Shown piece by piece: positions 27,064-43,773 of a DNA stretch of 50,961 nucleotides. Within the stretch, counting starts at the first letter, position 1. Every line of letters starts with the position of its first letter. The notes beneath the pieces are model-generated. The model worked only from the letters and a program-made list of their open reading frames with translations. It did not search any database and was not told the origin of the DNA. The position numbers and the translations under genes are program-made. The stretch spans positions 1 to 50,961 of the forward strand of contig SIBE01000002.1 in NCBI GenBank assembly GCA_009695265.1, given 5' to 3'. This stretch comes from Pedosphaera sp. GTDB taxonomy: Bacteria; Verrucomicrobiota; Verrucomicrobiia; Limisphaerales; SIBE01.

Positions 27064-27723
27064 TTACTCATCTGCCGGAAATTGTAACAAATCTTCGGCC
27101 GTCCACTGGGGATGTCCAGCCATTTTCTCTTTGACGGCTTTAATCTGTTGAGGGCTTACGAGTGATGCTTTGTTACCCCATGCCTGACGGATGTAGGAAA
27201 TAGCCGCAGCAAGATCAGCATCAGAAAGGCTTTCACCGACCCCTCCGGGCATTGCAGCGTTGTACATTTCGCCCTTGACGGAGATCTCTCCTTGCAGTCC
27301 ATACAACGCTATTCTGATCATTCGACCGGGCCCCGGCGTGTTCACCCATTCGGACCCCGCCAGGGGTGGTGCCAACGGAGATTGTGAGCCTAGCCCCGTC
27401 GGTTGATGACAAACACCACAGGCTTGCTCATACACAACTTTCCCGCGCGCCAACAACGCTTCGGTGTCGCTCTTGGGTTGAAGGGAATCTACCTGAGCGA
27501 ACGAGTCAAATGAACCATAGACCCGTGCCTGGAACCCCGCCGCATTATGATCGAGATGCAACTGAGCCCAGTAAAACAACACCCCAAGCAGAACAACGAG
27601 CCACAGCGGAACGGCCTTGAGCTCAACTACTGGCTCATTCACGTCGCCGCCACGTACGACACCATCGCTGCGGTTGGATGCGCCTTGGCGATCTCTACGT
27701 GATGGTTTCGGATTGTGACTCAT
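27064..27723 (-). CDS. Membrane-anchored monoheme cytochrome c
   Basis: N-terminal TM (VPLWLVVLLGVLFYWA), CGVCH, APPLAGSEWV, axial Met in AAMPG, YIRQAWGN. Confidence 0.9.
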   Translation of the reverse strand: MSHNPKPSRRDRQGASNRSDGVVRGGDVNEPVVELKAVPLWLVVLLGVLFYWAQLHLDHNAAGFQARVYGSFDSFAQVDSLQPKSDTEALLARGKVVYEQACGVCHQPTGLGSQSPLAPPLAGSEWVNTPGPGRMIRIALYGLQGEISVKGEMYNAAMPGGVGESLSDADLAAAISYIRQAWGNKASLVSPQQIKAVKEKMAGHPQWTAEDLLQFPADE

Positions 27724-27726
27724 GAA

Positions 27727-28443
27727 CTAATTGACACCGGACGGACTCGCTGCCACAGGAACCGAGTTAGTGTCACTTGCCACTGGCTTTGGTTTTTCTG
27801 GCGCAGGTGCCTCGAAAATCGGTTCCTCAGCTCTGAGGCTTAAAAGGTACGCCACCAAAGCGGTTGCTTCTGGCTTGGGAACGATTTCGTAGCCACTTTC
27901 GGCACCAGATTCAGCACTCAATGGAAGTGCATCCATCACACGTTCTCTGATGATTTTTCGTTTCTCAAAGAGGAATCGATACGAAGGCATCGACGATCCC
28001 GGAGACACCAACTTCGGGTTGAAAAGGTGAGTTAGGTGCCAGATCTCGTTCGTCTGGCGCACTCCCACATTCGCAAGATCCTGTCCGACTCTCATGGAAC
28101 CCACCATCACCGGTCGATCATGGATATAATCCGCAGCTACGCTTGGCCGGATACCCCATCCCCGTGCCACATCTCCACCCCGGTATTTCACCAGCTTGCC
28201 CTTGTTGATTTCCGCCTCTGCCCTGATTTGTTGAGTGTGGCAGTACGCGCAGCCATTGGCTCGATAGATGTCGCGCCCCTGTGCTGCGGCTCCAGGACGT
28301 GCGGCAGGATAGAAGGATCCGGTCGCTGGCACCGTGGCTGGTTGGAGATTTCCCAACTGTAGAACAGACCCAAAGATCACACCATACCATGACAAAGCGA
28401 AGCTCAACAGGACTCCAAGAAAGATCAACGGCCCGTAATTCAT
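27727..28443 (-). CDS. cbb3-type oxidase subunit II-like monoheme cytochrome (CcoO/FixO family)
   Basis: GRDIYRANGCAYCHTQQIR, GSMRVGQDLANVG, HLFNP..VSPGSSMPSY. ATG 28443 overlaps the upstream stop (ATGA). Confidence 0.88.
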   Translation of the reverse strand: MNYGPLIFLGVLLSFALSWYGVIFGSVLQLGNLQPATVPATGSFYPAARPGAAAQGRDIYRANGCAYCHTQQIRAEAEINKGKLVKYRGGDVARGWGIRPSVAADYIHDRPVMVGSMRVGQDLANVGVRQTNEIWHLTHLFNPKLVSPGSSMPSYRFLFEKRKIIRERVMDALPLSAESGAESGYEIVPKPEATALVAYLLSLRAEEPIFEAPAPEKPKPVASDTNSVPVAASPSGVN

Positions 28444-29918
28444 GCTCCCCTCCCCGAAATCTTGACGAAACGCGTCGAAGGTTTCTCTGAAATGCAACAC
28501 GAGCACCAAGACAAGTAGGAGAAACGGCACACATTGACCAACAATACCGTCGCACCAACCAGCACAAGCAAGGAACCGAGCGTCGCGATGCCCATAAATG
28601 GAACTGTCTTCCTCACGACATCTATGAAGTTGAGCGCTGGATTATCGAGAGCTTGACCTTGGACGAAACCTCCGATGATCAATGGCATCGAAACCAAAAT
28701 CGCTCCTAGACCCGCCAACCAGAAATTAAGCCCCACAAACGATGGGCGTTCACTCCGCCTGTCGGAGAGTTGAGGAGAAATCGAATAAATAGCACCAACC
28801 AGAACGAGGCTGACAAAACCCAAAAGAAACAGTTGCGATGTCCCCATCGACGTTATCGTCAGCGCACCGGGGTGACCGATCGATGCAATCACACTGATCG
28901 CCCTGATCAACCCGACGACGAGATACGCTCCGCATCCGGCAATGAAAAATTTCGCACCAGAGTCGCTCCATACGCGCGCGTACACACCTTGCAATGTTAA
29001 ATGCACGTTTGTCGCGAACGCCAGGACGGCAGTGACTCCCAGAACCAGACCAGCGTCGCTCACTGCTGCCACCCATCTCGGAACCGGTGTGCCTGCGGGA
29101 ATGCCTCCATACGCGCCAAAGATTGCAAGCAGCCAGAACCCAAAAACCGCCAGCGCCCTGCTGTGTAAAGGCTTGTTTGCCGCCTTCGGCATGAAATAAT
29201 AAGCGGCGGCAAGAACGAGTGGAGCCAGCCACAATGACATCAAATTGTGCCCCGCCCATCCAGCGACGATGATTTGCAACACACCACGCACGGAGGAAAA
29301 AATCAGCAACAGTTGCACTGTGGCGTAAACCCACGGAAACCAGCAAAGCGCGGCCATCACATACCACATTGATGGATAGAGCCTACGCTCAGTGCGACCG
29401 TGAAACGTGATCAACGTGAACGCACCGATTATCAAGTAGCCAACAAGAAGAACTGCCGATGAGTAACCAGGAAACTCGAAACACTCGTAACCGGTACCAT
29501 CCCCCATCAGAACTCCTCCGACTCCCAGCGCGACTCCGACATTCCACGCGAGGACTGCAACGACGATGAACAAAGCACCCTGAACCAGGTTACGCCCCAA
29601 GCGAGCCACCAACCAAAGGGCGACGGCCATTCCGGCCTGGGACGCAAATCCAAAAACCACCGCGTTCGTCGCAGCCGGTCTCACTCGCCCGTAAGTTAAC
29701 CACGAAACATCACTCAGGAAATCTGGTGCGTGCATCTTGATCGATGCCACCATTCCAAGCAGGGATCCAACCCAGAACCACACCGCTGCAAGAACGAACA
29801 TCAGGAGAACAGGTGCGCGGCTTGAACGGTCAACTTCCGCTGTGGTAACGATGGTTTCACGCGTTTCCACGGCTGCTGGCGCTGGCGATAAAGTGTCTGT
29901 TGTAACGGTTGAATTCAT
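28440..29918 (-). CDS. cbb3-type oxidase subunit I-like (CcoN-fold) membrane protein lacking most heme/Cu ligands
   Basis: About 12 hydrophobic helices. CcoN-like WLTYGRVRP..TNAVVFGF, E..E loop, GHN and YYFMPKAANKPL.S are present. The RPLH, GPHH and GHVH histidines are absent. Confidence 0.85.
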   Translation of the reverse strand: MNSTVTTDTLSPAPAAVETRETIVTTAEVDRSSRAPVLLMFVLAAVWFWVGSLLGMVASIKMHAPDFLSDVSWLTYGRVRPAATNAVVFGFASQAGMAVALWLVARLGRNLVQGALFIVVAVLAWNVGVALGVGGVLMGDGTGYECFEFPGYSSAVLLVGYLIIGAFTLITFHGRTERRLYPSMWYVMAALCWFPWVYATVQLLLIFSSVRGVLQIIVAGWAGHNLMSLWLAPLVLAAAYYFMPKAANKPLHSRALAVFGFWLLAIFGAYGGIPAGTPVPRWVAAVSDAGLVLGVTAVLAFATNVHLTLQGVYARVWSDSGAKFFIAGCGAYLVVGLIRAISVIASIGHPGALTITSMGTSQLFLLGFVSLVLVGAIYSISPQLSDRRSERPSFVGLNFWLAGLGAILVSMPLIIGGFVQGQALDNPALNFIDVVRKTVPFMGIATLGSLLVLVGATVLLVNVCRFSYLSWCSCCISEKPSTRFVKISGRGA

Positions 29919-29936
29919 TCAACGACGGTCAACCAA

Positions 29937-30305
29937 TTACTCAAACTGGCTCGGCTTTTCCGGCGCTTTTGGAGGCGGCGCAAATGCCTTCTCAACGCGT
30001 GCCACCATGTTAGACCGTGAAGCGGCTGGGTTCTTCGATTCCCGGACGATGGTTTCCATCGCCTGATCGATGCGCAGTTGATACAAGCCCTTGTTGGGAT
30101 CGATGACCGAATAGCCGTTCAATTGCTGACTCGCGGTAGCTGTCTCAGCCAGAGCCTTCCGGCGCTCTGCAATGCGTACCGTGTTTAGGCCGGTCGGTGC
30201 CGTGTAATGCTTCATAAGCTGCACAAGCCCGGCGACGATCAGGAACGCGCCGAGCATGGCAATGAAGTAAACGAAGGATGATGTGCGTGATGAAGAATTG
30301 CTCAT
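29937..30305 (-). CDS. Single-TM protein, ActG-like accessory subunit
   Basis: One TM helix, then LNGYSVIDPNKGLYQLRIDQAM, which resembles the LxxYGWVD..GxxRIPIxxAM pattern of proteins following actF. Likely start ATG 30305. Confidence 0.6.
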   Translation of the reverse strand: MSNSSSRTSSFVYFIAMLGAFLIVAGLVQLMKHYTAPTGLNTVRIAERRKALAETATASQQLNGYSVIDPNKGLYQLRIDQAMETIVRESKNPAASRSNMVARVEKAFAPPPKAPEKPSQFE

Positions 30306-30313
30306 TCGACACC

Positions 30314-31624
30314 TCAATGGGTTTCAATTCCGGAAGGCGCAGATTTCACTTCGTGGTGCGTGATCGCCTCTTTCAGTCGCGGATCCCGCAGCGGATAAGG
30401 AGGATGAGCCGCAAACCATCGCCTGAAGACCGTGATGAGAACGAAGCCAATCCCCACGAAGCAGAGCACATCAAAAATATGCAATGACATCCCGGTCGGA
30501 TGTAGCACGGGCATGATGTTGAATTGCATATCCATGTAATGCATCAACCAAATCCATGCCGCCATTGGGAGCATGACCGTCATGGAAAGTTTGGCGTCGA
30601 TGCGTAGGAGGCACAGGAATGGAACGAAGAAATGTCCGAAGACGATGAGCATTCCCACATCCCACCAGCTCCCGGTTTCGCGAAGCACATACCAGAAAGT
30701 TTCCTCCGGAATACCGGCGTTCCAGATCAGGAAGTACTGGGAGAAGTGGATGTAGGCGTAGAAAACCGTGAATGCAAAAAGCAAAACGCCAAAGTCATGA
30801 AGCTGCCTCTTGTGGACAACATCCTTAAGTGGACCGGATTTCTTGTAATACAGGGCCAGGACGTAAGCGGTGGCCAATGTGACCCAGGTGCTCCCGGCAA
30901 AGTAGTAGACGCCGTACATCGTGGAAAACCAGGCGTGTTGGAGGGATTTCATCCAATAAATCGCCGCCAGCGTCAGCGTGAAAGCGAAAACGAAAATACC
31001 GCCGGCAGCCCACTTGCGCATGGCCACGGTATGTGAAGCCGCTCCGTCCTTGTCCTGATCCAGAGAATGCGATCGCAGGCGCCAGGAAAAAAGCCACCAG
31101 AGACAGAACAACATTACCGAGACCACCGTCCATGCCGGGCGATTAAAGAGCACTGACTTTGCCTGCAATGCGTGATCCCCAAGTGGATCGATATTCATCC
31201 AACCATAAATCTGCGGCGCAAAAATCAGAATCGGAAGGAATAACCCCAGCATCACCGGCGCAAGAGAGGCGATGTGCTCCAGCATCCGTCGAGTTGGGAC
31301 AGACCAAGCCGCATCAAACAAGTGGTGCAAGATCACGAGGAACAAGCTTCCCAAGCAAAGGCTCAGGAAAAACATGAAGGCAACCAGATAGGAATAGAGG
31401 AATTGCTTACCAAGGGTGTACTCGTGCTGTATTTGCGTGGATACGCCCGCGAGTTTTGAATCGAGAGCTGTCGTCGCAGTCGCGGTGGCGTGCTCCGCCC
31501 CTTCAACGGTGACGAAACCGAATATCACAGCGAGCGCCGAGATCAACAGACACCAGCAAAACCAGCGAGCAGATCGTCCATGACCCACAGCAGTGTCGAT
31601 ATTTGAAAGAGTTCGAGAATTCAT
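30314..31624 (-). CDS. actF: Alternative complex III membrane subunit ActF
   Basis: Polytopic. HHL...WS...RR, WMKSL...WFSTMYGVY, HDFG.LLFAF, Y..FSQYFLIW...IPEET.WY; operon position fits. Confidence 0.9.
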   Translation of the reverse strand: MNSRTLSNIDTAVGHGRSARWFCWCLLISALAVIFGFVTVEGAEHATATATTALDSKLAGVSTQIQHEYTLGKQFLYSYLVAFMFFLSLCLGSLFLVILHHLFDAAWSVPTRRMLEHIASLAPVMLGLFLPILIFAPQIYGWMNIDPLGDHALQAKSVLFNRPAWTVVSVMLFCLWWLFSWRLRSHSLDQDKDGAASHTVAMRKWAAGGIFVFAFTLTLAAIYWMKSLQHAWFSTMYGVYYFAGSTWVTLATAYVLALYYKKSGPLKDVVHKRQLHDFGVLLFAFTVFYAYIHFSQYFLIWNAGIPEETFWYVLRETGSWWDVGMLIVFGHFFVPFLCLLRIDAKLSMTVMLPMAAWIWLMHYMDMQFNIMPVLHPTGMSLHIFDVLCFVGIGFVLITVFRRWFAAHPPYPLRDPRLKEAITHHEVKSAPSGIETH

Positions 31625-31628
31625 AGAC

Positions 31629-32279
31629 CTATTTGTTCAATGAAGCCCTGAATTGTGCGGGCACATCCTCCAACGAACCAAGCCGGCTGAACTGGAGGGC
31701 ACGTAGATAGCTTATCACCGCCCAACGATCCTCAACGGCAAGCTGCGACGCATAAGGCCCCATCAAATTACGGCCGTTGGAAATCACGTGAAACAACTCA
31801 CCATCCGACATCTTTACAATACGCGGATCATGCAGAGTGGCGACGACTGCCATGCCGAGTTTCTTGGTCACACCGTTTCCATCACCCAATGGACCATGAC
31901 ACGGAAGACAGTTGATCTCGAAGCGTTGACGCCCGCGAGCCATCGACTGGGCGTCTATCACTGTTGGATTTAATTCCACCCAATTCGTCGTTCCGGTCAT
32001 CTTTCCCGAGTTGACCGGATGGTCTTCGTATGAATAAACGACGGCACCACCGGCGACATTGCGGCGAGGCTCCGATCGGGCGACGGTCCCGGAAGCTGGC
32101 AACCGGGACGCTCGGTTATCGCGGAAGAACTCATTTGGTACTTGCGGCCGAAACTTCATCTGCCGATCCATGTCAGGGAAAACTTCGATCGGCGGTTTGC
32201 GCAATACGCTTTCGCGGAAGCCGAGAACTCCGATGGAGACCGCGACTATCAAGATCCAGATGGGGAGGAAGTATCGCAT
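31629..32279 (-). CDS. actE: Alternative complex III monoheme cytochrome ActE
   Basis: FPDMDRQ.KFRPQ, GTVAR, RGRQRFEINCLPCHG..GDG, G.NLMGPY, DRWAVISY.RALQ. Start is ATG 32279. Confidence 0.9.
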   Translation of the reverse strand: MRYFLPIWILIVAVSIGVLGFRESVLRKPPIEVFPDMDRQMKFRPQVPNEFFRDNRASRLPASGTVARSEPRRNVAGGAVVYSYEDHPVNSGKMTGTTNWVELNPTVIDAQSMARGRQRFEINCLPCHGPLGDGNGVTKKLGMAVVATLHDPRIVKMSDGELFHVISNGRNLMGPYASQLAVEDRWAVISYLRALQFSRLGSLEDVPAQFRASLNK

Positions 32280-32280
32280 G

Positions 32281-32820
32281 TTAGTCCTCGACGAAATGGA
32301 TTTGCCTGCCTCCCGAATCCTCCAGGAGCTTGCGGGTTTCCGTGCTGGAATACTTCGGATCGTCGCATTGGATTGTAATGAAGAACCGGTCGTTGGAGAA
32401 TCGAGCAAACGTCCGGCTCTTGAGCAGCGGATTGTACAACTTTGGCAACCGGTTCAGGAAGAGCATCCCAAAAAGCGTACCGAATGAAGCCAGCAGAATC
32501 GTCAGCTCGTATGAAACCGGGAATGCAAACATCGGGCTGAACAGCGGTTTACCGCCGACCACCACCGGATAATCCCATTTGTTCATCCACCAGATCATCG
32601 ACATACCGGTGGTGAAACCAGTCATGCCGCCGAAAAAGGTGAACCAGCCAACTTTCGAGTTTTGAAGTCCCATCGCATCGTCCATTCCGTGAACGGGGTA
32701 TGGCGTGTGAACATCCCACCGACGGAAGCCGGCGTCGCGAACGCGCACAGCCGCATTCATGATGTCTGCCGCTGTTTCAAACTCGGCGATCAGCGCGTAA
32801 GGTGTGTTCGTCTCAGGCAT
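32281..32820 (-). CDS. actD: Alternative complex III subunit ActD (DUF3341 type)
   Basis: HTPYPVHGMDDAMG, two TMs, VGGKP.FS, FPVSYELTIL. Start is ATG 32820. Confidence 0.9.
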   Translation of the reverse strand: MPETNTPYALIAEFETAADIMNAAVRVRDAGFRRWDVHTPYPVHGMDDAMGLQNSKVGWFTFFGGMTGFTTGMSMIWWMNKWDYPVVVGGKPLFSPMFAFPVSYELTILLASFGTLFGMLFLNRLPKLYNPLLKSRTFARFSNDRFFITIQCDDPKYSSTETRKLLEDSGGRQIHFVED

Positions 32821-32841
32821 TTTCCAGGTCCTCAAATAGGT

Positions 32842-34275
32842 TTAGTGATGCCCTTTCGCACCGCCCAATGCATGGTGCGGATCCGCCTGCGGGGTCACGC
32901 CCTTCACTTCCGCGATCGCAATCACCGGAAGGAAACGCATGAACAGCAGGAACAAAGTCATGAACAAACCGAAGCTTCCCACGAACGTCAGGACGTCCAC
33001 GTAAGTCGGATAGAACATGCCCCAGCTCGATGGCAGATAATCGCGATGGAGCGAGGTCACAATGATGACGAACCGTTCGAACCACATGCCGATGTTTACG
33101 AAGATCGAAACGATGAAGACAAAAACCACGTGTGTCCGGCACCATTTGAACCAGAAGAGTTGAGGCGAAATGACGTTGCACGAAATCATCGTCCAGTAAG
33201 CCCACCAATAGGGACCGAACGCACGGTTCTTGAAGGCATAAAGCTCGTAAGGATTGCCGCCATACCAGGCGATGAAGAATTCCATGCCGTAGGCGTAACC
33301 CACGATGGAACCGGTCGCGAGGATGACCTTGCACATCAACTCGACGTGCCGGATCGTGATAACGTCGTGGAGACCGCAGACCGATCGCAACGGAATCAAA
33401 AGCGTCAGGACCATGCCGAAGCCAGAGAAGATCGCGCCAGCGACGAAGTAAGGAGGGAAGATCGTCGTGTGCCAGCCGGGCACTTGTGAAACGGCGAAGT
33501 CGAATGAAACCACCGAGTGCACCGACAAAACGAGCGGCGTGCTCAAGCCTGCGAGAAGCAAGTAGGCCTTCTCGTAATTACTCCAGTGGCGGTTTGATCC
33601 GGTCCACCCAAGAGCGAAAAGTCCGTAGAGAAATTTGCGCATCTTCGTCGTCGCACGATCACGCATCGTCGCCAGGTCAGGAACCAGGCCGACGTACCAG
33701 AATAGAAGGGAAACGGTTCCGTAAGTCGAAACCGCGAAAACGTCCCACAACAACGGCGAGCGAAACTGCGGCCAGATGCTGTTCGCATTCGGGAATGGAA
33801 TCAGGTAGCCTGGATATAGTGCAAACCACACACGACCCGTATGCACGACCGGAAAAATTCCTGCGCAAACCACTGCAAAGAGCGTCATTGCTTCAGCAGC
33901 GCGATTGATCGATGTCCGCCACTTCTGACGTAGCAAGAAAAGAATGGCCGAAATCAGTGTGCCCGCGTGGCCAATGCCGATCCAGAAGACGAAGTTCGTG
34001 ATGTCCCACGCCCACCCCACCGTGTTGTGCAATCCCCAGACACCCACGCCGGTCGAGATGAGATAGCCGATCATTCCCGCCATCATCGACATCACCGAAA
34101 AACTGATGGCGAAGGCAATCCACCACCATCGAGGCGTCTTCCCCTCTGCGATGCCGGCGATTTTGTCGCTGATCCACCCCATCGGGCGTTGGTTCAGCAC
34201 CAGCGGCACGCGCTCCAATTCGCGCGGCGGCCCGGCTAACTTCAGTGCGCCCTGACTTGATACTGCGTCAGCCAT
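32842..34275 (-). CDS. actC: Alternative complex III quinol-oxidising subunit ActC (NrfD/PsrC family)
   Basis: [74 protein letters not shown]. Confidence 0.95.
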
Positions 34276-37200
34276 TAGTGCGCTCCTTTCTTTTCAGCTC
34301 CCACCGGCTCACCGTGAGCCGCTCCCGCACCGTGACTGGCAAATGGATCGTCGTGCCGATGCTCTTCATACTCCTGCAAACTTGCTGGCATCTTGTAGTA
34401 GTCCGGCATTTCGGGATTTGGATTGCGAATGCGTGCCAAGTAAGTCACGCGTGGCTTGGTATCGAGGAATCCAAGAACCGCGTAATCACGGGCTTGTCCC
34501 TTGAGTTTTGAAACCCGGCTCTCAGGGTCAAGCAGATTGCCGAATGCGATCGCCTCCGCGGGACAAACCTGAGCGCACGCCGTGGTGAATGTTCCTTCCG
34601 GAACACGCACCTGATCAGTGGCTCCAGCCTTCACTTTCTGTGAGATTTTCGCCCCTTCGATGCGCTGAATGCAGAACGTGCATTTCTCCATCACGCCGCG
34701 CATGCGAATGCTCACGTCCGGATTTTTCGCCATCTTGACGATATCCACCTCGTCCTTCGGCCTCGTCGCAAGCGGGCCCTGGTAGAGAGCCGTGAGCGGA
34801 CGCTTGTTGAAATCGAAGAAATTAAAGCGGCGAACTTTCCAGGCGCAGTTGTTCGAGCAGTACCGGGTTCCAACGCAACGATTGTAGGCCATGACATTGA
34901 TCCCTTCCTCATCATGCACGGTGGCGTTGACCGGACATACCATCTCGCAAGGAGCACTCTCGCAATGCTGGCAAAGCATCGGCTGCATGTTCACCTGCGG
35001 ATCGTCGGCTGCCTCTTCCGGGTTCTCACGCGAGCTGCTGAAATAACGATCGATTCGCATCCAGTGCATCTCGCGATTCTTGAAGATCTGATCCTTCCCA
35101 ACAATCGGAATGTTGTTTTCGCTCTGGCAGGCGATGACACAGGCGCCGCAACCGACACAGGAGTTCAGATCGATCGACATTCCCCACTGATGCACTTCGC
35201 TCTGGAGAATTTGTCGGCGATCATCACGAAGATCGGTGCCGCCGTTCTTGCCGTTTGGATGCTTGTCGTAAGGATGCTTGTAAATCGGCCCCGCGTTCGG
35301 CGCGTGCGCCTCCAGATCCATGTTCTTCGCAAACGCCGGCTTCTGCTGAAACTGCTGCCAGTTTGCCTCACGAATGATTGGGCGACCCTCCATTACACCG
35401 TGGTCTTGAGTCGTCACGACTCGGTGCGATCTGTCCAGACGCGACGGGCGCTCGACGCCGGAAGCAACAAAAGGCGCTGCCGAACCGCGAACCTCGTAGG
35501 CGCTAAAGCCCACTTTCTGACCGCCAAAGCCACCGATGCGTCCGGCTCGTTCTCGTCCGTATCCAAGAGCCAAGCCTAAGGTGAAATCTGCCAAACCCGG
35601 CTGAACCGCCACCGGCCCCTGGACTTTGAGGTCGCCGACCTTGACCTCAATCACGTCACCGGTCTTGACTCCCAACTCAACTGCAGTCTTGCGGCTCAGC
35701 AAAATCGGATTGTCCCAAACGACTTTCGTGATCGGATCGGGAAGCTCCTGAAGCCATCCGTTGTTGTTGTAACGACCGTCATCCAGCTTGGAATCTCGAA
35801 AGAAAACGACTTCCAGTTTCTCAACGGAAGGAGCTGGCACCGATTGTTGACCGCCCAGAGCTTGAGCTGTAGCCGACGACCTTAACGCAACTAAAACTGG
35901 ACGGTGGGCACTCTCAGCCAGGAAACCATCGTGGAGGAACTTCTTCCACCGTGGCTCGTTTTCGCCGCCAGCGTTGTTGGCAAAGGTCTCGCGCACCAGT
36001 TCATACGGGCTTGTCTGCGCCAAACCCGCTGCCCGCGCCAGCACTTCAATTTCCGTCATACCGCCAAATAACGGTTCTATGAGAGGCTGGATGCCAACAA
36101 TAGTGCCATCCGGAGTCCGGGCATCTCCCCAGCTCTCGAGATAATGAGCCTGCGGGATTTGAAAGTCGCTCGCCGTGGAGGTTTCATCCTCGTAGTATCC
36201 AAGGCGGATTACCTTCTTCGCCTTGCGCTGCGTTTGCGCCCAAATCAAATCCACAGGGGCATTGTAGGCAGGATTACCGCCCGAAATCACCAGCGTGTTG
36301 ACCTGGCCCGAGTTCAAAGCCTGCGCGAGTTGGCCAATCGTCCCCTCGGCTCCAATCGAAGGGGCCGTGAGGTAACTGACCGGAGCCGCCCCTCCCTGAG
36401 TGCTGCCAAGCGCGACATTCATCACAGCGGCCACAAGGTGGGCAGCCACAGGCTGGCGGTAGCCCGCTACGACGAGGGCCTTGCCTCTCTGTGCCACCAA
36501 ATCTTTCGCGCATTCGACGGCCCATTTCTCAGCATCGGGAGCGCCGTTGGCGAGTTGTTGAAGAGCTGCGTTCAACTCGGGTGTCGCCGGGAAGTTTGTC
36601 TGTTTAAGAACCTCGATCGCAACACGAGCACCGATCTTGACAACCGAGCTCGTCGAAATGCGAAGCCGATGATCCGCGTTTGACCCGGTCACAGTCAGCA
36701 GACCCTCGACGACGTAGAGACGGCTCATCTTGTCGCCAGGTTTCTCAACCCGACGCCCGGCGGCGTAACCACGAATATGCTTCCATGCGTTGTCCTCCGC
36801 ACCCGCAAAATCACAGTCCAGAGACAAAATCGCCGAAGCTGTGCCGAAGCGGTAGGAAGCAATCACCGGCTGGCCAAAAGCGATGGTCAATGCTTGCGCC
36901 TCAAAACCCATATCCGCAGGCTCGTAAACATGCCACGTCGCTTGCGGATACTTCTGTGCGATCAGGGCCTGCAACCGTGCTCGCGTGGGCGAATTATTTC
37001 GTTCCACGAGGAAAGAAAGTCCGTCACCGCGATTTTGTCCAAAGCGGACCTCAATCTGGCGCAATTCGTCGATGGCAGCCTCGCGAGTTGCAGTCGAACC
37101 GGCGCTTGTAAATCGCGTCGCCCGATCCGGATCATAAAGATCCAGGATGGATGCTTGCGCAAAAACGTTTGTTCCGCCGCCGCTCTCAGGATGGCCAAGG

Positions 37201-37574
37201 TTGCCCTCGATCTTCGTGGGCCGTCCGTCACTCGACTTCACAAGCAGAGGAACTGCCCCACCCCTCCCAGGCATGGCCGTTGCGTAATACTGTGCGACGC
37301 CGTGGACATACCCTTCCGGCATTTTCGAGAATGGATGGATATACTCCTCCGGCTTGCGGCAGCCGGTGAGTCCGATGCCCGCGAGCGCAAAGGAAGCGGA
37401 CATCAACTGCATGAAAGAACGCCGTGTCACCGGGTCCGTCAATTCGCTCGCGCCGTCGGGAAACTCACGTGCCGCCCACTGCTTGAACTCCGGGGTTTCA
37501 GCCAGGTGATCGAGACTGCGCCAATACTTTGGACCCGTGTCCGGTTCCGGGCATGGAGGAGGAATGATTTTCAT
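34275..37574 (-). CDS. actB: Alternative complex III ActB (molybdopterin-oxidoreductase-like domain fused to a Fe-S domain)
   Basis: YWRSL, Tat motif TRRSFM with LTGC lipobox, [21 protein letters not shown]. Fe-S motifs [36 protein letters not shown] and MEKCTFC..CAQVCP. Confidence 0.95.
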
Positions 37575-38221
37575 CGATGACAGGCGGAGCAGTTTTGAGA
37601 GGAATTGACCTTCCAGTCATGCACGAACTTCTCACCGAGTTGAAGCTGGGCGGCTTCGTTCGTGTGCCAATTCAGGTTGAAGACCTGCTCCGGCGGACGG
37701 ATGTTCTTTTCGGGATTCCGGTGGCAATCAAGACAGAAACCCATGCTTAACGGCTGTGCATGGCGCACTTCGTCCATCTTGTTGATCTCACCGTGGCAAC
37801 TAAAGCAACTGACCCCACGGTTCACGTGAACGGAATGATTAAAATAGACGTAATCCGGGGTCTTGTGGATCTGAACCCACGGAATTGCCTTCCCGGTGTT
37901 GTAGCTTTCCCGGACAAGCGCCAGCTTCGGATCATTTGCCAGGATCTGGTTGTGGCAATTCATGCACGTTGAAGCCGCAGGAATATTTGAGTACCAGGAT
38001 TTCTCCACCCCATTGTGGCAATACCGGCAGTCCAAGCCAACCTGATCCACGTGAATCGCATGGGAAAACGCGACCGGCTGGACGGGCTGATAGCCCACCC
38101 GGGTGTACTTTGGTGTCGCGTAGTAAGTGATCCCCGCGAACACAGTGGTTCCTGCGATCAAGGCTCCAGCGATCACTCGCGTCGGAAGCTTGTTCGTCCA
38201 CTTTGGAAAAATGTCTGACAT
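37571..38221 (-). CDS. actA: Alternative complex III pentaheme cytochrome c ActA
   Basis: N-terminal TM, QPVAFSH..H, five CxxCH motifs (CRYCH, CMNCH, CFSCH, CLDCH, CSACH), PDYVYFNHS.H. Likely start ATG 38221. Confidence 0.95.
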   Translation of the reverse strand: MSDIFPKWTNKLPTRVIAGALIAGTTVFAGITYYATPKYTRVGYQPVQPVAFSHAIHVDQVGLDCRYCHNGVEKSWYSNIPAASTCMNCHNQILANDPKLALVRESYNTGKAIPWVQIHKTPDYVYFNHSVHVNRGVSCFSCHGEINKMDEVRHAQPLSMGFCLDCHRNPEKNIRPPEQVFNLNWHTNEAAQLQLGEKFVHDWKVNSSQNCSACHR

Positions 38222-38569
38222 CGGAAAGCTGTGTAAAATCTCCACCCAGAAGCCGCTTAACTACGAAACCCGTAAACAAGCATCACCCGCAGCGCGCCAG
38301 TCCCATTAAACTTCATCAATTGAGTCCTTCTTCCCCTCGATTCGCGCCGCTCAATAAGTAATGCTTTTCCAATGGGCAGTGATGTTTAACGGGAGGGAAA
38401 GTCAAAGCAAGCAACTTCACGCTTTGCATCGAACATTTCCGTTTGCTTAATAATGGCAATAAGCCACGCCTGCTGGCACCGGGTGCCTAGCCAAGCTCAG
38501 AAACACTATTTAAGCCCAAATTGGAGGGCCGGCTCACATCAATTTCGTTCACGAAAACAACGCTCTCAC

Positions 38570-39883
38570 TTACTCTCCTCTTCGATACGCCTCAGCCAGC
38601 AATGTGATCGGATGCACCAGCCGCACTTGCATCCCCTCACGCCGCGCGCCATTGACGAGCTGCAACAGGCACCCAGGATTCGCCGTCGCCACCACCATCG
38701 CTCCGGTTTTGCGGATGTGTCCAAGCTTCCGATTCAAAAGCTCCGTTGCCATCTCCGGCTGAATCAAATTGTAAATCCCAGCGCTGCCGCAGCACCAAGT
38801 GCTTTCGGCCAATTCCACTAATTTCAAGTTCGGGATCGCCCTCAACACCTGACGAGGCTGCAAGGTGATCTTCTGCCCATGGCACAAATGGCAAGCCTCA
38901 TGATAAGTGACCAGCATTTCATCGCAAATGTCCTTCGAGGTGCTTTGATTCACCCCCTTTGGAGATGTGATCCCGATCTCTACCAACCACTCGTGAACAT
39001 CCTTCACCTTCATGTCCCATAGCTGCGCTCGTTCCTCATAAGCCGCATCGCCAGCCAATAATTTCGCATAATGTTTCAAATGTGAACCGCAGCCAGCCGC
39101 GTTCGTGATGATCGCGTCGAACTTCTCCGGCGGAAACTGATCGATGTTCACGCGCGCCAGCCGTTGCGCCAGCTCCCACTCTCCGTTATGCGCGTGCAAC
39201 GAGCCGCAGCACGATTGCTCGGGAGGCGTCGCCACTTCGCACCCATTCCGGGCCAAAACTTCCACCGTGTCCCGATTCACATCACTGAAAATCAAGTCCT
39301 GCGCGCAACCTGTGAGCATCGCCACGCGGTAACGCTTTTCACCGACAGCCGGCGTGCCAGGCGCAATCAGCTCATCCGAGAATTTCCGTTGCATTGTGGG
39401 TGTCATCTCCTCCAGCTCGCGAAAACGCTTCGGCAAAAGTTTCAGAACGCCGGTGCGCCGAACGAATGTCTGCAAGCCAAGCCGCTGGTACAACCTCAGC
39501 ACGTGTCCGAGCAAATGCAGCCGCCGCAAATCCATGAACAACCACTGCAAGGTGAACCCACGCACCAGTCCCCTGCCCTGCGAATCCAGCGTGCCGCTTT
39601 GTTCCGCCTCCGCCCGCGCATGCTCGAACAGTTCCGCATAATTCACTCCCGCCGGGCACGCCGTCATGCACGCCAGACAACCCAGACAAAAATACATCTC
39701 ATCCGCGAAGGTCTTCGTCGCCTCCATCTTCCCATCAGCAATTGCGCGCATCAGAGCGATGCGACCGCGCGGGCTGTTGCGCTCCAGTTTTGTCGCGTCA
39801 TAAGTGGGGCACGTGGGCAGGCACAGCCCGCAATGCATGCATTGCTGTACCACCGAATAGTCCAGATTCTTCAGATGCGACAT
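38570..39883 (-). CDS. glcF: GlcF-like Fe-S oxidoreductase (two 4Fe-4S motifs plus two CCG domains)
   Basis: CMHCGLCLPTCPTY, SPRGRI, CLGCLACMTACP, CCGSLHAHNG, YHEACHLCHGQ, CCGSAGIYN, ANPGC. Likely start ATG 39883 after GAAGGAAG. Confidence 0.8.
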   Translation of the reverse strand: MSHLKNLDYSVVQQCMHCGLCLPTCPTYDATKLERNSPRGRIALMRAIADGKMEATKTFADEMYFCLGCLACMTACPAGVNYAELFEHARAEAEQSGTLDSQGRGLVRGFTLQWLFMDLRRLHLLGHVLRLYQRLGLQTFVRRTGVLKLLPKRFRELEEMTPTMQRKFSDELIAPGTPAVGEKRYRVAMLTGCAQDLIFSDVNRDTVEVLARNGCEVATPPEQSCCGSLHAHNGEWELAQRLARVNIDQFPPEKFDAIITNAAGCGSHLKHYAKLLAGDAAYEERAQLWDMKVKDVHEWLVEIGITSPKGVNQSTSKDICDEMLVTYHEACHLCHGQKITLQPRQVLRAIPNLKLVELAESTWCCGSAGIYNLIQPEMATELLNRKLGHIRKTGAMVVATANPGCLLQLVNGARREGMQVRLVHPITLLAEAYRRGE

Positions 39884-39999
39884 GACTTCCTTCATCTCTC
39901 GAAGAAATGGATGCACGTGCAGCCTGTGGATTCAATCTATTAAACAAGTTCTGCAAGCCGTCTTGCCAGTTTTGAAACATCAGGCCAGACTCTCGACTC

Positions 40000-42900
40000 A
40001 TGGAATCCCTGCAAATCTCCCGACATTGCCCACATTGTCTCTTACTTGCCCCATTGCTCGCGTTTCTGTCCCTGCTTGCCTTGCCTTACCAGTCTGCTGG
40101 AGCGCCCTCAAAGGAGCCTCACGTCGTCTTCGTCATCGGCGAAAACGAATACAACACTTGGGATACACTTCCTGAGTTTGCAGAAAAAGAACTCCGGCCT
40201 CAGGGTCTTCGTTTTACCTATGTCAACGCCTCGCCGCAGCAAGTCGCCAGCGAGTTCACCAACTTCGTGGCGATCAAGGAGGCGGATCTCCTGGTAATCA
40301 GCGTCCGCAGAAGAGCGCCACGCAAGGAGATGCTGGACTTGATCCGCGCTCATCTGGCCGCCGGCAAACCGCTCGTCGGGATTCGAACCGCAAGTCACGC
40401 GTGGGATGTGAAGCCTGCCGATGCTGAACATGACAACTGGCCCACCTTCGATGTCGATGTGCTGGGCGCGAAGTACGAGAACCATTATGGCCGCACCAAC
40501 ACCGGGCCTCAGGCCATCATCAAGGCTGTGCCGGAAGCGACGACACATCCGGCGCTGCGAGGCGTTCCGATCGAGTTCCCCAGCGATTCGCATCTTTACA
40601 AGTACACCAAGACTAGCGGCACTGTGACACCGCTCTTGATGGGGCATCTCGCGAGTCGGACCAACGTGGAGATGGCGGCTTGGACCTTTACCGGAAACAA
40701 CCGCCGCGTCTTCTACACCTCACTCGGCGGCACGGAGGATTTCAAACTGCAGGGTTTCAGAACGCTTCTACGCAATGCTGTGCTCTGGGCTTTGGATCGT
40801 CCGATTCCAATGGCTGCTCTCAGTGGCTCACCTTCAACCCTCGCCCATCATCTGCAGGAAGAGCCGTTGACTCCCAGCGAATCACTTCAGAAGTTTCATT
40901 TGCAGGACGACCTTGAGATCGAGCAAGTGCTCGCCGAGCCAGTCGTCGCACAGCCTGTCTTCCTGAACTTCGATGAGCGTGGCCGCATGTGGGTCGTCCA
41001 ATACCGCCAATATCCCTTTCCCGCCGGCCTCAAAATGATGAGCCGCGACAATGTCTGGCGCGCAGTGTACGACAAGATTCCGCAGGCCCCACCTCACCAC
41101 GTCCGAGGCGAGGACAAGATCACGATCCACGAAGACACCGATGGGGACGGAAAGTTCGACAAGCATACAACTTTCGTCGAAGGGCTGAATATTTGCACCT
41201 CTGTCGAACGCGGGCGCGGAGGAGTGTGGGTTCTAAATCCGCCGTATCTCCTGTTTTACCCCGACCGCAACAACGACGATGTGCCGGACGGTGATCCGGA
41301 AGTGCGTCTCGAAGGCTTCGGACTTGAGGATACTCATTCCGTGGCGAACAGCTTGCGCTGGGGACCAGACGGCTGGCTTTATGGCGCTCAAGGAAGCACA
41401 GTGACGGCGAAGATTACTGTTCGAGATTCCAAGGGGCGCGCGCTGAATGACAAGCCCATTTACTCCCAGGGCCAGAACATCTGGCGCTATCATCCCGAGA
41501 AGGGAATTTATGAAGTCTTCTCGGAAGGCGGCGGCAACGCGTTCGGGGTTGAGATCGATTCCAAGGGTCGCATCTTCTCCGGTCACAACGGAGGAAACAC
41601 GCGCGGCTTTCACTACATGCAAGGCGCGTATCTTCAGAAAGGATTCGAGAAGCACGGTCCGCTTTCGAACCCGCATGCGTTCGGATACTTCCCGCAGATG
41701 CCCCATGATGATGTCCAACGCTTCACACATAATTTCATCATCTACGACGCCGGCGCGCTGCCTGAACGCTACCAGGGCAAACTCTTCGGCGTCGAACCGC
41801 TACAGGGTCGCGTCGTCTTCAGCGACATCACGCCGGACAAATCATCCTTCCGCACGCATGACCTCGGCTACGCCGTCACTTCCGACGACCAATGGTTTCG
41901 CCCCGTCGATATCAAGGTTGGACCCGACGGCGCGATCTACGTATGCGATTGGTACGACCGCCAGGTAAATCATTTCCGAAACCATGAAGGCCAGATCGAC
42001 AAGAACAACGGACGAATCTACCGTATCCAACGAAAGAATCAGGCGCTGCATGGACCTTTCGACCTCGCGAAACTTTCGACCGGGCAGCTCGTCGAATTAC
42101 TCGAGCACAAGAATAAGTGGTACCGCCAGCAAGCGCTGCGACTTTTGGCGGATCGGCAGGACCGGTCAACTGATTACACTCGCAAACTCATCCCAGCTCC
42201 TGACAGCCTTACGAGTTCTTCAGCGCTCGAGTATCTCTGGCTGATCAATCTCACGGGTGGTTTCGATACCCGGCTTGCAGCCGCATCACTCCAAAGCGCC
42301 GATCCTCAAGTGCGCCTCTGGACCATCAGACTGCTCGGCGATGCAAAACAAATCCCACCTGAAGTCGTTCCAATGCTTGTTGAGCGCGCCGAACGGGATG
42401 CAAACCTCGAAGTTCGCGGCCAGCTCGCCAGCACCGCGAAACGTCTCCCGGCAGACTATGCCCTGTCCATTGTCCGCGCACTTCTTTCGCACGACGAGGA
42501 CACGACGGACAATCGCCTGCCGCTTCTGCTCTGGTGGGCCATCGAATCGAAAACGGAGTCGGATCGCGATGCGGTGATCGGCTTCTTCAGCGATGTGGCG
42601 CTCTGGAGTCATCCCATCGTAAAAGACCATTTGCTTGATCGCGTCATGCGCCGCTACGCCACAGCCGGCACCCGTCAGGATTTGCTCTCGTGCGCCAGGT
42701 TATTCGCCATTTCTCCAAAGGCCGAACTCACCGCCAAGCTCGTGAGCGGCTTCGAGGCCGCGTTCAAAGGCCGCTCGATGGCAAATCTTCCGGAAGAACT
42801 CGTGGGCGCAATGACCAAAGCGGGAGCACGCTCCATGGTGATTAGCTTGCGTCAGCGCCAACCGGAGGCGTTCGATGAAGCCTTGCGCGTCATCAACGAC

Positions 42901-43773
42901 GACGCAGCCGACAAAGAGCGACGGCTGCAGTTCGTGCAGATTCTCGGCGAAGTCAAGCAGCCGCGCGCTGTCGATGCCTTGCTGGGGCTCATTGGAAAAT
43001 CCAACGACCCCGCGCTCATCAAGGCGTCGTTAATTTCTCTTCAGAGCTACGATGAACCCCGAATAGGCGGGGCAGTGATCGACGCTTACAAGTCTTTCTC
43101 CGAAGACACCCGGACGAGCGCCCTGACGTTGCTGGCCAGCCGATCCGCTTGGGCGCTCCAGTTCCTGGAAGCGCTGGACGCCGGACGGGTCGTGCGACAG
43201 GCTGTGCCTCAGGATGTCGTCCGCAAAGTAAAGTTGTATGACACTCCTCGTCACCGCGAACTCTTGGCAAGAACGTGGCCTAACATTCAGACTCCCACGA
43301 CGGCGGAGATGGAGAAACAAATCAAACGCCTGGCCGGGGTTTTGAGCAAAGGAACGGGGAGCCCCTACGAAGGCCAGAAGCTCTACTCGGTTAGCTGTGG
43401 TGCCTGTCACAAGCTCTTCGGCAAAGGCGGCCAGATCGGACCCGACCTGACGACTTTCAAGCGTGATGACCTCGAGAACATGCTGCTCAACGTGGTCAAT
43501 CCGAATGCGGAAATCCGCGAGGGTTACGAAAACTTCCTCCTGACCACCAAGGACGGCCGGGCGCTTTCGGGGTTCATTGCCGACAAGGATGACCGCGTCA
43601 TTGTCCTCCGCGGGCTCGACGGCGAGAACTCAGTGTTGCCTCGCGACGAGATCAGCGAAATGAAGGCTGCAGGCGCCTCCCTGATGCCAGAGGGAATGCT
43701 TGAAGCATTGGAGGATCAGCAGGTCCGTGATTTGTTTGCTTACCTTCGCAGCACTCAGCCACTGGTGAAATAG
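40000..43773 (+). CDS. ThuA-like domain fused to a PVC-type membrane-bound-dehydrogenase / heme-binding CxxCH protein
   Basis: Signal peptide and ThuA-like GIRTASHA / RVFYTSLG. Propeller motifs FDERGRMWV, DTDGDGKFDK, WGPDGWLYG and FRPVDI.VGPDGAIYV.DWY. HEAT-like repeats, then CGACH, IGPDLT and SLMPEG. Confidence 0.9.
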   Translation: MESLQISRHCPHCLLLAPLLAFLSLLALPYQSAGAPSKEPHVVFVIGENEYNTWDTLPEFAEKELRPQGLRFTYVNASPQQVASEFTNFVAIKEADLLVISVRRRAPRKEMLDLIRAHLAAGKPLVGIRTASHAWDVKPADAEHDNWPTFDVDVLGAKYENHYGRTNTGPQAIIKAVPEATTHPALRGVPIEFPSDSHLYKYTKTSGTVTPLLMGHLASRTNVEMAAWTFTGNNRRVFYTSLGGTEDFKLQGFRTLLRNAVLWALDRPIPMAALSGSPSTLAHHLQEEPLTPSESLQKFHLQDDLEIEQVLAEPVVAQPVFLNFDERGRMWVVQYRQYPFPAGLKMMSRDNVWRAVYDKIPQAPPHHVRGEDKITIHEDTDGDGKFDKHTTFVEGLNICTSVERGRGGVWVLNPPYLLFYPDRNNDDVPDGDPEVRLEGFGLEDTHSVANSLRWGPDGWLYGAQGSTVTAKITVRDSKGRALNDKPIYSQGQNIWRYHPEKGIYEVFSEGGGNAFGVEIDSKGRIFSGHNGGNTRGFHYMQGAYLQKGFEKHGPLSNPHAFGYFPQMPHDDVQRFTHNFIIYDAGALPERYQGKLFGVEPLQGRVVFSDITPDKSSFRTHDLGYAVTSDDQWFRPVDIKVGPDGAIYVCDWYDRQVNHFRNHEGQIDKNNGRIYRIQRKNQALHGPFDLAKLSTGQLVELLEHKNKWYRQQALRLLADRQDRSTDYTRKLIPAPDSLTSSSALEYLWLINLTGGFDTRLAAASLQSADPQVRLWTIRLLGDAKQIPPEVVPMLVERAERDANLEVRGQLASTAKRLPADYALSIVRALLSHDEDTTDNRLPLLLWWAIESKTESDRDAVIGFFSDVALWSHPIVKDHLLDRVMRRYATAGTRQDLLSCARLFAISPKAELTAKLVSGFEAAFKGRSMANLPEELVGAMTKAGARSMVISLRQRQPEAFDEALRVINDDAADKERRLQFVQILGEVKQPRAVDALLGLIGKSNDPALIKASLISLQSYDEPRIGGAVIDAYKSFSEDTRTSALTLLASRSAWALQFLEALDAGRVVRQAVPQDVVRKVKLYDTPRHRELLARTWPNIQTPTTAEMEKQIKRLAGVLSKGTGSPYEGQKLYSVSCGACHKLFGKGGQIGPDLTTFKRDDLENMLLNVVNPNAEIREGYENFLLTTKDGRALSGFIADKDDRVIVLRGLDGENSVLPRDEISEMKAAGASLMPEGMLEALEDQQVRDLFAYLRSTQPLVK

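Follow-up and report, generated by a model that had tools for sequence, protein, structure and literature searches.

A CcoN-like subunit without its metal-ligand histidines in the alternative complex III operons of Verrucomicrobiota

Introduction

Several respiratory complexes contain cofactor-less homologues that serve as structural subunits, such as CydB as compared with CydA in cytochrome bd, the molybdopterin-like domain of ActB and the core proteins of the bc1 complex; within the literature searched, subunit I of a heme-copper oxidase is not among the recorded cases. In the supercomplex of alternative complex III (ACIII) and oxidase from Flavobacterium johnsoniae (PDB 6btm), the partner of ACIII is an active aa3 oxidase. 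ACIII genes adjoining cbb3-type oxidase genes are on record in verrucomicrobial methanotrophs and Opitutaceae, according to two studies (Schmitz et al., 2021, PMC8498564; Kruse et al., 2019, PMC6688271). The present analysis concerns such a neighborhood in a stretch of 50,961 nucleotides from Pedosphaera sp. (contig SIBE01000002.1, positions 1 to 50,961, referred to below as the window), which carries, behind a set of ACIII genes, a gene for a protein resembling CcoN, the subunit I of cbb3-type oxidases (Table 1). From the DNA alone, the original prediction had proposed that this is an intact gene for a "pseudo-oxidase" devoid of five of the six histidines that bind hemes and copper.

Altered active sites have been described elsewhere in the heme-copper oxidase (HCO) superfamily. 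In gNOR, one active-site histidine is replaced by aspartate, and the authors call this the first such case (Murali et al., 2024, PMC11214002). A search of the literature yielded no account of a CcoN that lacks its ligands; subscription papers and supplements, such as the datasets of Murali et al., lay beyond that search. All the evidence discussed here is computational. As set out below, the CcoN-like protein is probably a catalytically dead, cofactor-less descendant of cbb3 CcoN that has been kept as a scaffold for c-type cytochromes in an ACIII module.

The CcoN-like protein and its former metal sites

The reading frame of the CcoN-like gene is intact and of full length, as had been claimed for it, with an ATG start and zero internal stops. 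The Pfam family COX1 (PF00115) is matched with an E-value of 1.6e-32 and a score of 113.4 bits against a cut-off of 34.8, and the AF2 model obtained from a 34-row alignment (pLDDT 87.0, pTM 0.88) has 12 transmembrane (TM) helices. The top Foldseek match of the model is chain A of the Pseudomonas stutzeri oxidase, 3mk7_A (E 3e-19, TM-scores 0.84/0.89, root-mean-square deviation 2.1 Å), and the family profile, the modeled helices and the structural match together place the protein in the 12-TM COX1 fold. Pairwise HMMER alignments to solved CcoN chains are significant as well (E 1.6e-24 for 9g6b_A and 7e-24 for 3mk7_A). The score for the ccoN equivalog of NCBIfam (TIGR00780), 127.8 bits, lies below its cut-off of 583.15, which leaves the protein outside that equivalog.

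The sites that hold the metals in solved CcoN have been rewritten. RLRPLHTN has become RVRPAATN, WWYGHN has become GWAGHN, WAGPHHLHY has become YGGIP--AG and TIGHVH has become SMGTSQ; each of the four replacements listed in the original prediction is reproduced in the alignments to both 9g6b_A and 3mk7_A, so that the comparison with the P. stutzeri protein confirms the ligand losses. The ligand sites were called from MAFFT alignments with relatives that have kept all their histidines, and these calls are concordant with the pairwise HMMER alignments. The corresponding P. stutzeri residues are H60, H207, Y251, H257, H258, H345 and H347, in agreement with the chain positions in the pairwise alignments. 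In the window protein, A83 and Q362 occupy the two axial ligand sites of the low-spin heme b and T360 that of the high-spin heme b3; among the three CuB sites, one has kept its histidine (H224), one is P274 and one falls into a gap. One metal-ligand histidine out of six is therefore left. The site of the cross-link tyrosine is G268. The arginine and E-x-x-E motifs said to be retained are indeed present (R78/R80 and E145-x-x-E148). By its defining features, this His-less CcoN is a pseudo-enzyme form of HCO subunit I and stands outside the functional cbb3 oxidase family.

A large family of His-less relatives

Relatives of the protein are numerous. A word-indexed search returned 62 homologues, an exhaustive search of cluster representatives gave 1895 clusters at E<=1e-3, of which 312 pass E<=1e-30, and a scan of species-representative genomes gave 554 encoding loci among 599 pattern matches. 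The locus counts given here refer to the best 80 of these 554, nearly all of which come from metagenome-assembled genomes (MAGs) of Verrucomicrobiota. The pooled set held 290 sequences; 15 shorter than 430 aa (including locus L045) were dropped, and the remaining 275 near-full-length relatives were classified and placed in a tree. The ligand set is missing from 217 of them, 44 have all six histidines and 14 have kept the heme b ligands only. Among the 217 His-less sequences, 128 have no histidine at the six sites, 77 have one, 11 have two and a single sequence has three. The His-less state accounts for 129 of the 135 near-full-length top representatives and for 53 of the 58 homologues from the word-indexed search. 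Among the 79 classified loci, 33 are His-less and 34 are His-complete. The His-less CcoN is thus a large and old family, almost wholly restricted to the ACIII operons of Verrucomicrobiota, and the ligand loss, judged from these alignments, is not a matter of chance, because identical losses recur across a family of hundreds of sequences.

Across the 217 His-less relatives, no conserved substitute ligand (His, Met, Cys, Lys or Tyr) is found at the six former sites, where the residues vary (A/S/F/Q, N/H/Q/G, P/Q/A and L/Q/V/R). This bears on a possibility that the original prediction had itself raised, namely that other residues have taken over the metal sites, and thus on the idea that the protein is still a redox enzyme, binding heme or metal through non-His ligands and reducing O2, NO or another acceptor. 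Such an enzyme would be in keeping with the preserved fold, and hence cofactor space, with the intact heme-c donor subunit and with the retention of H224, the equivalent of the CuB ligand His207, in the window protein and in six of the 11 best matches from related genomes. Besides the lack of conserved ligands, however, the cross-link tyrosine, present in 100% of the His-complete group, is absent from the whole His-less group (0.0), the equivalents of the heme-propionate arginines R79 and R446 drop from 100% to 31% and 10%, and the histidine content is 1.57% against 3.57% in the His-complete relatives. In a survey of HCO families, the active-site histidines are fully conserved apart from the one substitution in gNOR (PMC11214002). 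A redox enzyme of this kind is therefore considered very improbable. The CcoN-like subunit is, in all likelihood, cofactor-less and not an oxidase: because heme b, heme b3 and CuB would have been lost together with the cross-link tyrosine, the propionate arginines and the proton-channel residues, the reduction of O2 or NO should be impossible.

The proton-channel residues themselves have mostly turned apolar. In the K-channel, the proton channel of C-family oxidases, the equivalent of S240 is Ala in 84% of the His-less sequences, those of Y223 and Y317 are Phe in 53% and 42%, and that of T334 is Leu, Val or Ile in 74%. The original prediction had offered two possible roles, a cofactor-less scaffold or adaptor and a repurposed ion or proton channel. 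The first fits all the evidence gathered, and the proton channel is disfavored because the polar residues of the channel are mostly apolar in the His-less clade.

In a phylogeny of the 275 sequences (FastTree, rooted on P0068, a fused His-complete CcoNO), 212 of the 217 His-less sequences group together with moderate support (SH-like value 87, a branch that is not starred), forming a clade that is sister to one made up of 41 His-complete verrucomicrobial CcoN and the heme-b-only subclade. The ligand states change seven times on the tree, against an average of 54.7 when the labels are shuffled, and at least four of the changes are forced by starred branches. One main ancient loss accompanied by a few others would be the best reading of this history, short of proof.

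A second degenerate lineage was also observed, comprising loci L035, L049, L054, L064, L067, L068, L072, L073, L075, L076, L079 and L082. Its pattern, H-N-Q/T-R-Y-H, retains the heme b ligands and the propionate arginines and has a tyrosine at the heme b3 site, all CuB ligands and the cross-link tyrosine being lost. The equivalents of R79, R446 and H457 are all retained at 100% in the heme-b-only group, which for this reason would fit a true intermediate that still binds heme b. Another observation concerns P0069, a fused CcoN-CcoO protein of 768 aa that keeps its CxxCH motif and has F-H-F-S-Q-Q-D at the six ligand sites plus that of the tyrosine, and may represent an independent ligand loss in the fused lineage.

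Selection on the His-less gene

Two gene pairs were used to estimate dN/dS. The window gene and the orthologue at locus L085, which is 74% identical to it and lies on a syntenic contig of genome G017, give 0.12 (NG86) or 0.16 (YN00); the paralogues L002 and L004, with 96% identity, give 0.13 or 0.19. Selection on the His-less gene is purifying, and with its open frame the gene does not have the marks of a pseudogene. The phylogeny and dN/dS values that the original prediction had called for thus speak against its own alternative of orthologues with all histidines and a decaying copy here, 217 of the 275 relatives being His-less themselves.

The speed of evolution deserves separate attention. 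Where the ActC proteins are 70-75% identical, the mean identity of the corresponding CcoN proteins is 43.9% if they are His-less (49 pairs) and 65.7% if they are His-complete (38 pairs), and at 80-90% ActC identity the values are 51.1% (15 pairs) and 75.5% (44 pairs). Constraint is clearly relaxed relative to catalytic CcoN, because at equal ActC divergence the His-less pairs are 44-51% identical and the His-complete ones 56-76%. This faster evolution would be expected of a decaying gene, a remnant without function whose frame merely happens to be open still. The low dN/dS in two independent pairs, the intact frames here and in all 11 best matches from relatives, the diversity of a clade of 212 sequences, the fixed synteny and the translational coupling to the next gene nevertheless make such a remnant barely conceivable.

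The CcoO-like partner and the conserved neighborhood

The stop codon of the CcoN-like gene overlaps the ATG of the CcoO-like gene in an ATGA at 28443-28440, the coupling noticed from the DNA. Together with the FixO match, the CAYCH heme-binding motif, the axial methionine and the complex model described below, this overlap identifies an adjacent CcoO-type monoheme cytochrome c as the partner. The arrangement is conserved among the best 80 loci. An ActF-like gene precedes CcoN in 72 of them; of the remaining eight, seven have less than 1 kb of upstream sequence and only locus L019 has 10 kb upstream without act genes. A CcoO-like gene lies downstream in 78, the other two loci ending at the CcoN gene. 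The CcoO-like ORFs (open reading frames) of the His-less loci contain one CxxCH in 30 of 32 cases, the two exceptions being split ORFs, and their axial methionine and GPDL motif are 100% conserved. The anchored third cytochrome and ActE have one CxxCH each wherever they were found.

When the CcoN-like and CcoO-like proteins were modeled as a complex with alignments as input, the median ipSAE over three runs was 0.90, and the highest-scoring of three controls had 0.00. In calibration, 58 of 80 solved complexes reached the mark applied, as did 2 of 110 mismatched pairs. Contact agreement between the runs was at least 97% and the pLDDT of the partner at least 81. This outcome of the complex modeling that had been suggested at the outset leads us to infer that the pair probably still assembles. 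Among the 451 core positions, 61 show at least 80% conservation within the His-less clade, and 21 of these fall within the 73 modeled interface residues, an enrichment with an odds ratio of 3.4 (one-sided Fisher p 1.2e-4). The conserved interface positions include G77/R78, which contact the CxxCH segment, as well as Q215, W221, W262, P278/P280, T354 and Q420. A role of the CcoN-like subunit as a scaffold for CcoO appears likely in view of these results.

Gene content of the operon

The CcoN-like gene belongs to a ten-gene operon on the minus strand that consists of the ACIII genes actA-F and an oxidase-type module, with actA-F directly upstream of the module and on the same strand (Table 1). 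The gene for the anchored cytochrome c begins 4 nt past the CcoO-like stop, and the operon is followed downstream by tuf, nusG, the L1 and L10 genes and rpoBC. Homologues of the ActB-sized subunit in related loci are 42-69% identical to it. A search for RNA sequencing runs over positions 27064-31624 listed none.

Table 1. Genes of the operon in the window and features of their products.
Feature	Coordinates	Strand	Remarks
Membrane-anchored monoheme cytochrome c	27064..27723	-	219 aa; CGVCH
CcoO-like monoheme cytochrome c	27727..28443	-	238 aa; CAYCH; FixO PF02433 E 6.3e-24
Axial Met of the CcoO-like protein			M152 counted from the ATG of this gene (M181 in P0002 numbering)
CcoN-like subunit	28440..29918	-	492 aa, 12 TM helices; lacks five of six metal-ligand His and the cross-link Tyr
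Small single-TM protein	29937..30317	-	about 122-126 aa; between ActF and the CcoN-like gene
ActF, second NrfD-like membrane subunit of ACIII	30314..31624	-	6f0k_F E 3.9e-59; 6btm_F E 2e-24
ActE-like monoheme cytochrome c	31629..32408	-	CLPCH; true start probably an internal Met near 32279
ActD	32281..32835	-	PF11821 E 1.2e-65
ActC, NrfD-like quinol-binding membrane subunit	32842..34275	-	NrfD family match
ActB-sized subunit	34275..37574	-	1099 aa; C-terminal Cys-rich Fe-S-type motifs; assigned from sequence and synteny
ActA, pentaheme cytochrome c	37571..38245	-	five CxxCH

The small single-TM protein matches none of the Pfam and NCBIfam families and no PDB sequence at E<=10, and its related clusters consist only of Verrucomicrobiota proteins labeled "hypothetical". 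Its blastp matches occur in many loci, of the His-less and His-complete types alike, and it has a C-terminal motif (...PPPKAPEKPSQFE) in common with its paralogue from the second operon (locus L002). Upstream of actA, the product of positions 38570-39916 (minus strand) contains CCG-domain repeats as well as a 4Fe-4S dicluster domain. The product of positions 40000-43773 (plus strand) is 1257 aa long, combines ThuA, DUF7133, HEAT and cytochrome c domains and may be an electron donor in the periplasm.

Proposed role of the module and the points against it

The proposal of a dead CcoN kept as a scaffold can be phrased as follows. Having lost its hemes and copper, the protein would persist under purifying selection as a 12-helix membrane platform, on which the CcoO-like heme-c subunit would be seated and on which the anchored neighboring cytochrome c is probably held too, beside ACIII. 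The module would be co-transcribed with ACIII, and menaquinol electrons could then leave ACIII through the chain of c-type hemes toward separate terminal enzymes. This last step is the weakest one, and we advance the relay to other terminal enzymes only tentatively, with somewhat less than even confidence.

Two features that set the His-less modules apart have to be described before this proposal is weighed. The first is the cytoplasmic tail after TM12, which is Cys-rich in the window protein (C464...C472-S-C-C, residues ~464-474, window positions 28497-28529 on the minus strand); CC dipeptides occur in the tails of 72 His-less sequences and in 0 of the His-complete and 0 of the heme-b-only sequences. 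The second is an insert of ~75 aa directly after the CxxCH motif in 21 of the 27 aligned CcoO-like partners of His-less CcoN. The partners of His-complete CcoN have a gap at this position. For the partner encoded at locus L002 of the same genome (contig C137, 2874-3803), the Ribosomal_L12 family of Pfam is matched with 29.0 bits against a cut-off of 25.9, and a domain resembling a ribosomal protein (L7/L12) is thus situated inside a periplasmic cytochrome.

Several observations weigh against this proposal. The CuB histidine H224 is retained in the nearest relatives, and the constraint on the protein is relaxed as described above. The high score of the complex model may reflect likeness to solved structures and not binding, because cbb3 structures such as 3mk7 have already been solved. 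Of the 61 conserved positions, 40 fall outside the modeled CcoO interface. Tails with at least three cysteines occur in 82 of the 217 His-less sequences against 1 of the 44 His-complete and 0 of the 14 heme-b-only ones, and a match to the C-terminal domain (CTD) of Ribosomal_L12 is found in 15 of the 27 CcoO-like partners (best E 5.1e-8). The Cys-rich tail and the L7/L12-CTD-like insert, in particular, suggest something beyond a passive scaffold.

The last three of these observations are also those on which a neofunctionalized 12-TM body could be founded, whether it conducts ions or a substrate, handles metal through its Cys tail, or docks and senses through the new domains. The window's own module, however, has no L7/L12-like insert in its CcoO-like protein, the Cys tail is found in about 38% of the family only, the polar residues of the proton channel have turned apolar and no conserved chain of charged or polar intramembrane residues is seen. 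We therefore consider such a new function unlikely. A further reading joins elements of both and is somewhat easier to entertain, even if we hold it to be doubtful: the CcoN/CcoO pair would have been rebuilt into a new exit or docking module of ACIII, a heme-c relay on an inert 12-helix platform. The CcoO of most lineages would have gained the periplasmic L7/L12-CTD-like domain and many CcoN the cytoplasmic Cys cluster, quinol-derived electrons would be routed to, or sensed for, partners other than the former active site, and the parallel heme-b-only lineage would mark an intermediate stage. The scaffold of a catalytically dead CcoN is the reading retained here.

Other oxidases and operon copies in the source genome and its relatives

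The source genome is a 61%-complete MAG in which an A-type COX1 match of 432.7 bits is found. On another of its contigs, C137 (L002, L097), the same MAG carries a second ACIII operon, which includes a further His-less CcoN-like gene (L002); the product of this gene shares 43% identity with that of the window and 96% with L004. For RpoB, the window shares 98% identity with contig G017:C187, which also bears the 74% CcoN-like orthologue, and 94% and 92% with genomes G002 and G001. These two are of the same genus, yet their best CcoN-like matches are only 43% and 45% identical. The presence of two paralogous operons in one organism is not assured, because the window contig is nearer to G017:C187 than to the same-genus genomes, and the source bin may instead be chimeric.

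With the window protein as the query, matches were obtained in 28 of 31 genomes (30 relatives and the source genome). The 11 best matches from relatives were fetched and all are His-less with intact frames. In 18 relatives there is an extra match of ~24-28% identity in an open frame of 607-799 aa, and the fused CcoNO genes that were fetched have all six histidines, the tyrosine and the CxxCH motif in ten cases out of ten. A real cbb3 oxidase would thus often be present elsewhere in the genomes of the relatives, because all the fetched fused CcoNO keep their ligands. Three matches to CcoN or CcoNO in other genomes contain one in-frame TGA each (G059:C1:2426541-2428868, G060:C1:4304132-4305574 and G034:C20:10289-11659), and one of them sits in the genome holding L057.

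It was also considered that the ACIII-linked copy might be degenerate only where a separate fused CcoNO is at hand. This idea of complementarity was rejected, since the presence of the fused gene does not track the ligand state. In genomes whose completeness is not given, fused CcoNO genes at least 60% identical to P0068 occur in 6 of 15 with His-less loci, in 12 of 18 with His-complete loci and in 0 of 6 of the heme-b-only group, the last six being four with the typical pattern and two (L056 and L077) in which a further histidine has been lost.

Implications for annotation and respiration

The original prediction had warned that automated annotation would mistake the protein for a high-affinity oxidase, and this is what has happened: both JGI and NCBI label members of the family "cytochrome c oxidase cbb3-type subunit I". 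Since these sources give the cbb3 subunit I label to His-less proteins, the genome-based case for high-affinity, microaerobic respiration may be overstated for MAGs of Verrucomicrobiota recovered from soil, peat and freshwater. In 9 of the 15 genomes with a His-less locus, for which no completeness is given, the P0068 query revealed no further cbb3-type (fused CcoNO) gene. A check of the six ligand sites would correct the annotation of cbb3 subunit I. The family is, moreover, a clear exception to the view of the histidines as invariant across the heme-copper superfamily, as expressed by Murali et al. (2024, PMC11214002), and it represents a natural experiment on the role of the fold apart from catalysis. 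It points to a stable structural role for the oxidase-type module in ACIII assemblies, which can be tested in cultured Limisphaerales/Pedosphaerales.

Comparison with known systems

The CcoN of P. stutzeri (PDB 3mk7/5djq) shares with the window protein the 12-TM fold, ~22% identity and a translationally coupled monoheme partner of the CcoO type; the window protein differs in having neither heme b ligand, no heme b3 ligand, one of the three CuB ligands, and none of the cross-link tyrosine, the propionate arginines and the channel residues. Further counterparts are the His-complete ACIII-linked cbb3 oxidases of Verrucomicrobiota, from Opitutaceae and others, which have the same gene order (actA-F, the small gene, ccoN, ccoO and cytochrome c) and form the sister clade at 35-40% identity to the window protein. 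They keep the six histidines and the tyrosine, unlike the His-less clade, and the Opitutaceae loci in our set are His-complete. The ACIII-oxidase supercomplex of F. johnsoniae (6btm) and the ACIII structures 6f0k and 6lod are comparable through the ActF matches and through the oxidase-type genes that directly follow the act genes, whereas the oxidase-type subunit of the window is without metal sites. The gNOR and other newly defined HCO families are likewise members of the superfamily with altered active sites, yet in gNOR a single histidine is replaced, and here five of six ligands have gone without a conserved substitute. With CydB, the ActB domain and the bc1 core proteins, which belong to unrelated families, the His-less CcoN would share a principle, that of a catalytic fold retained as the scaffold of a respiratory complex.

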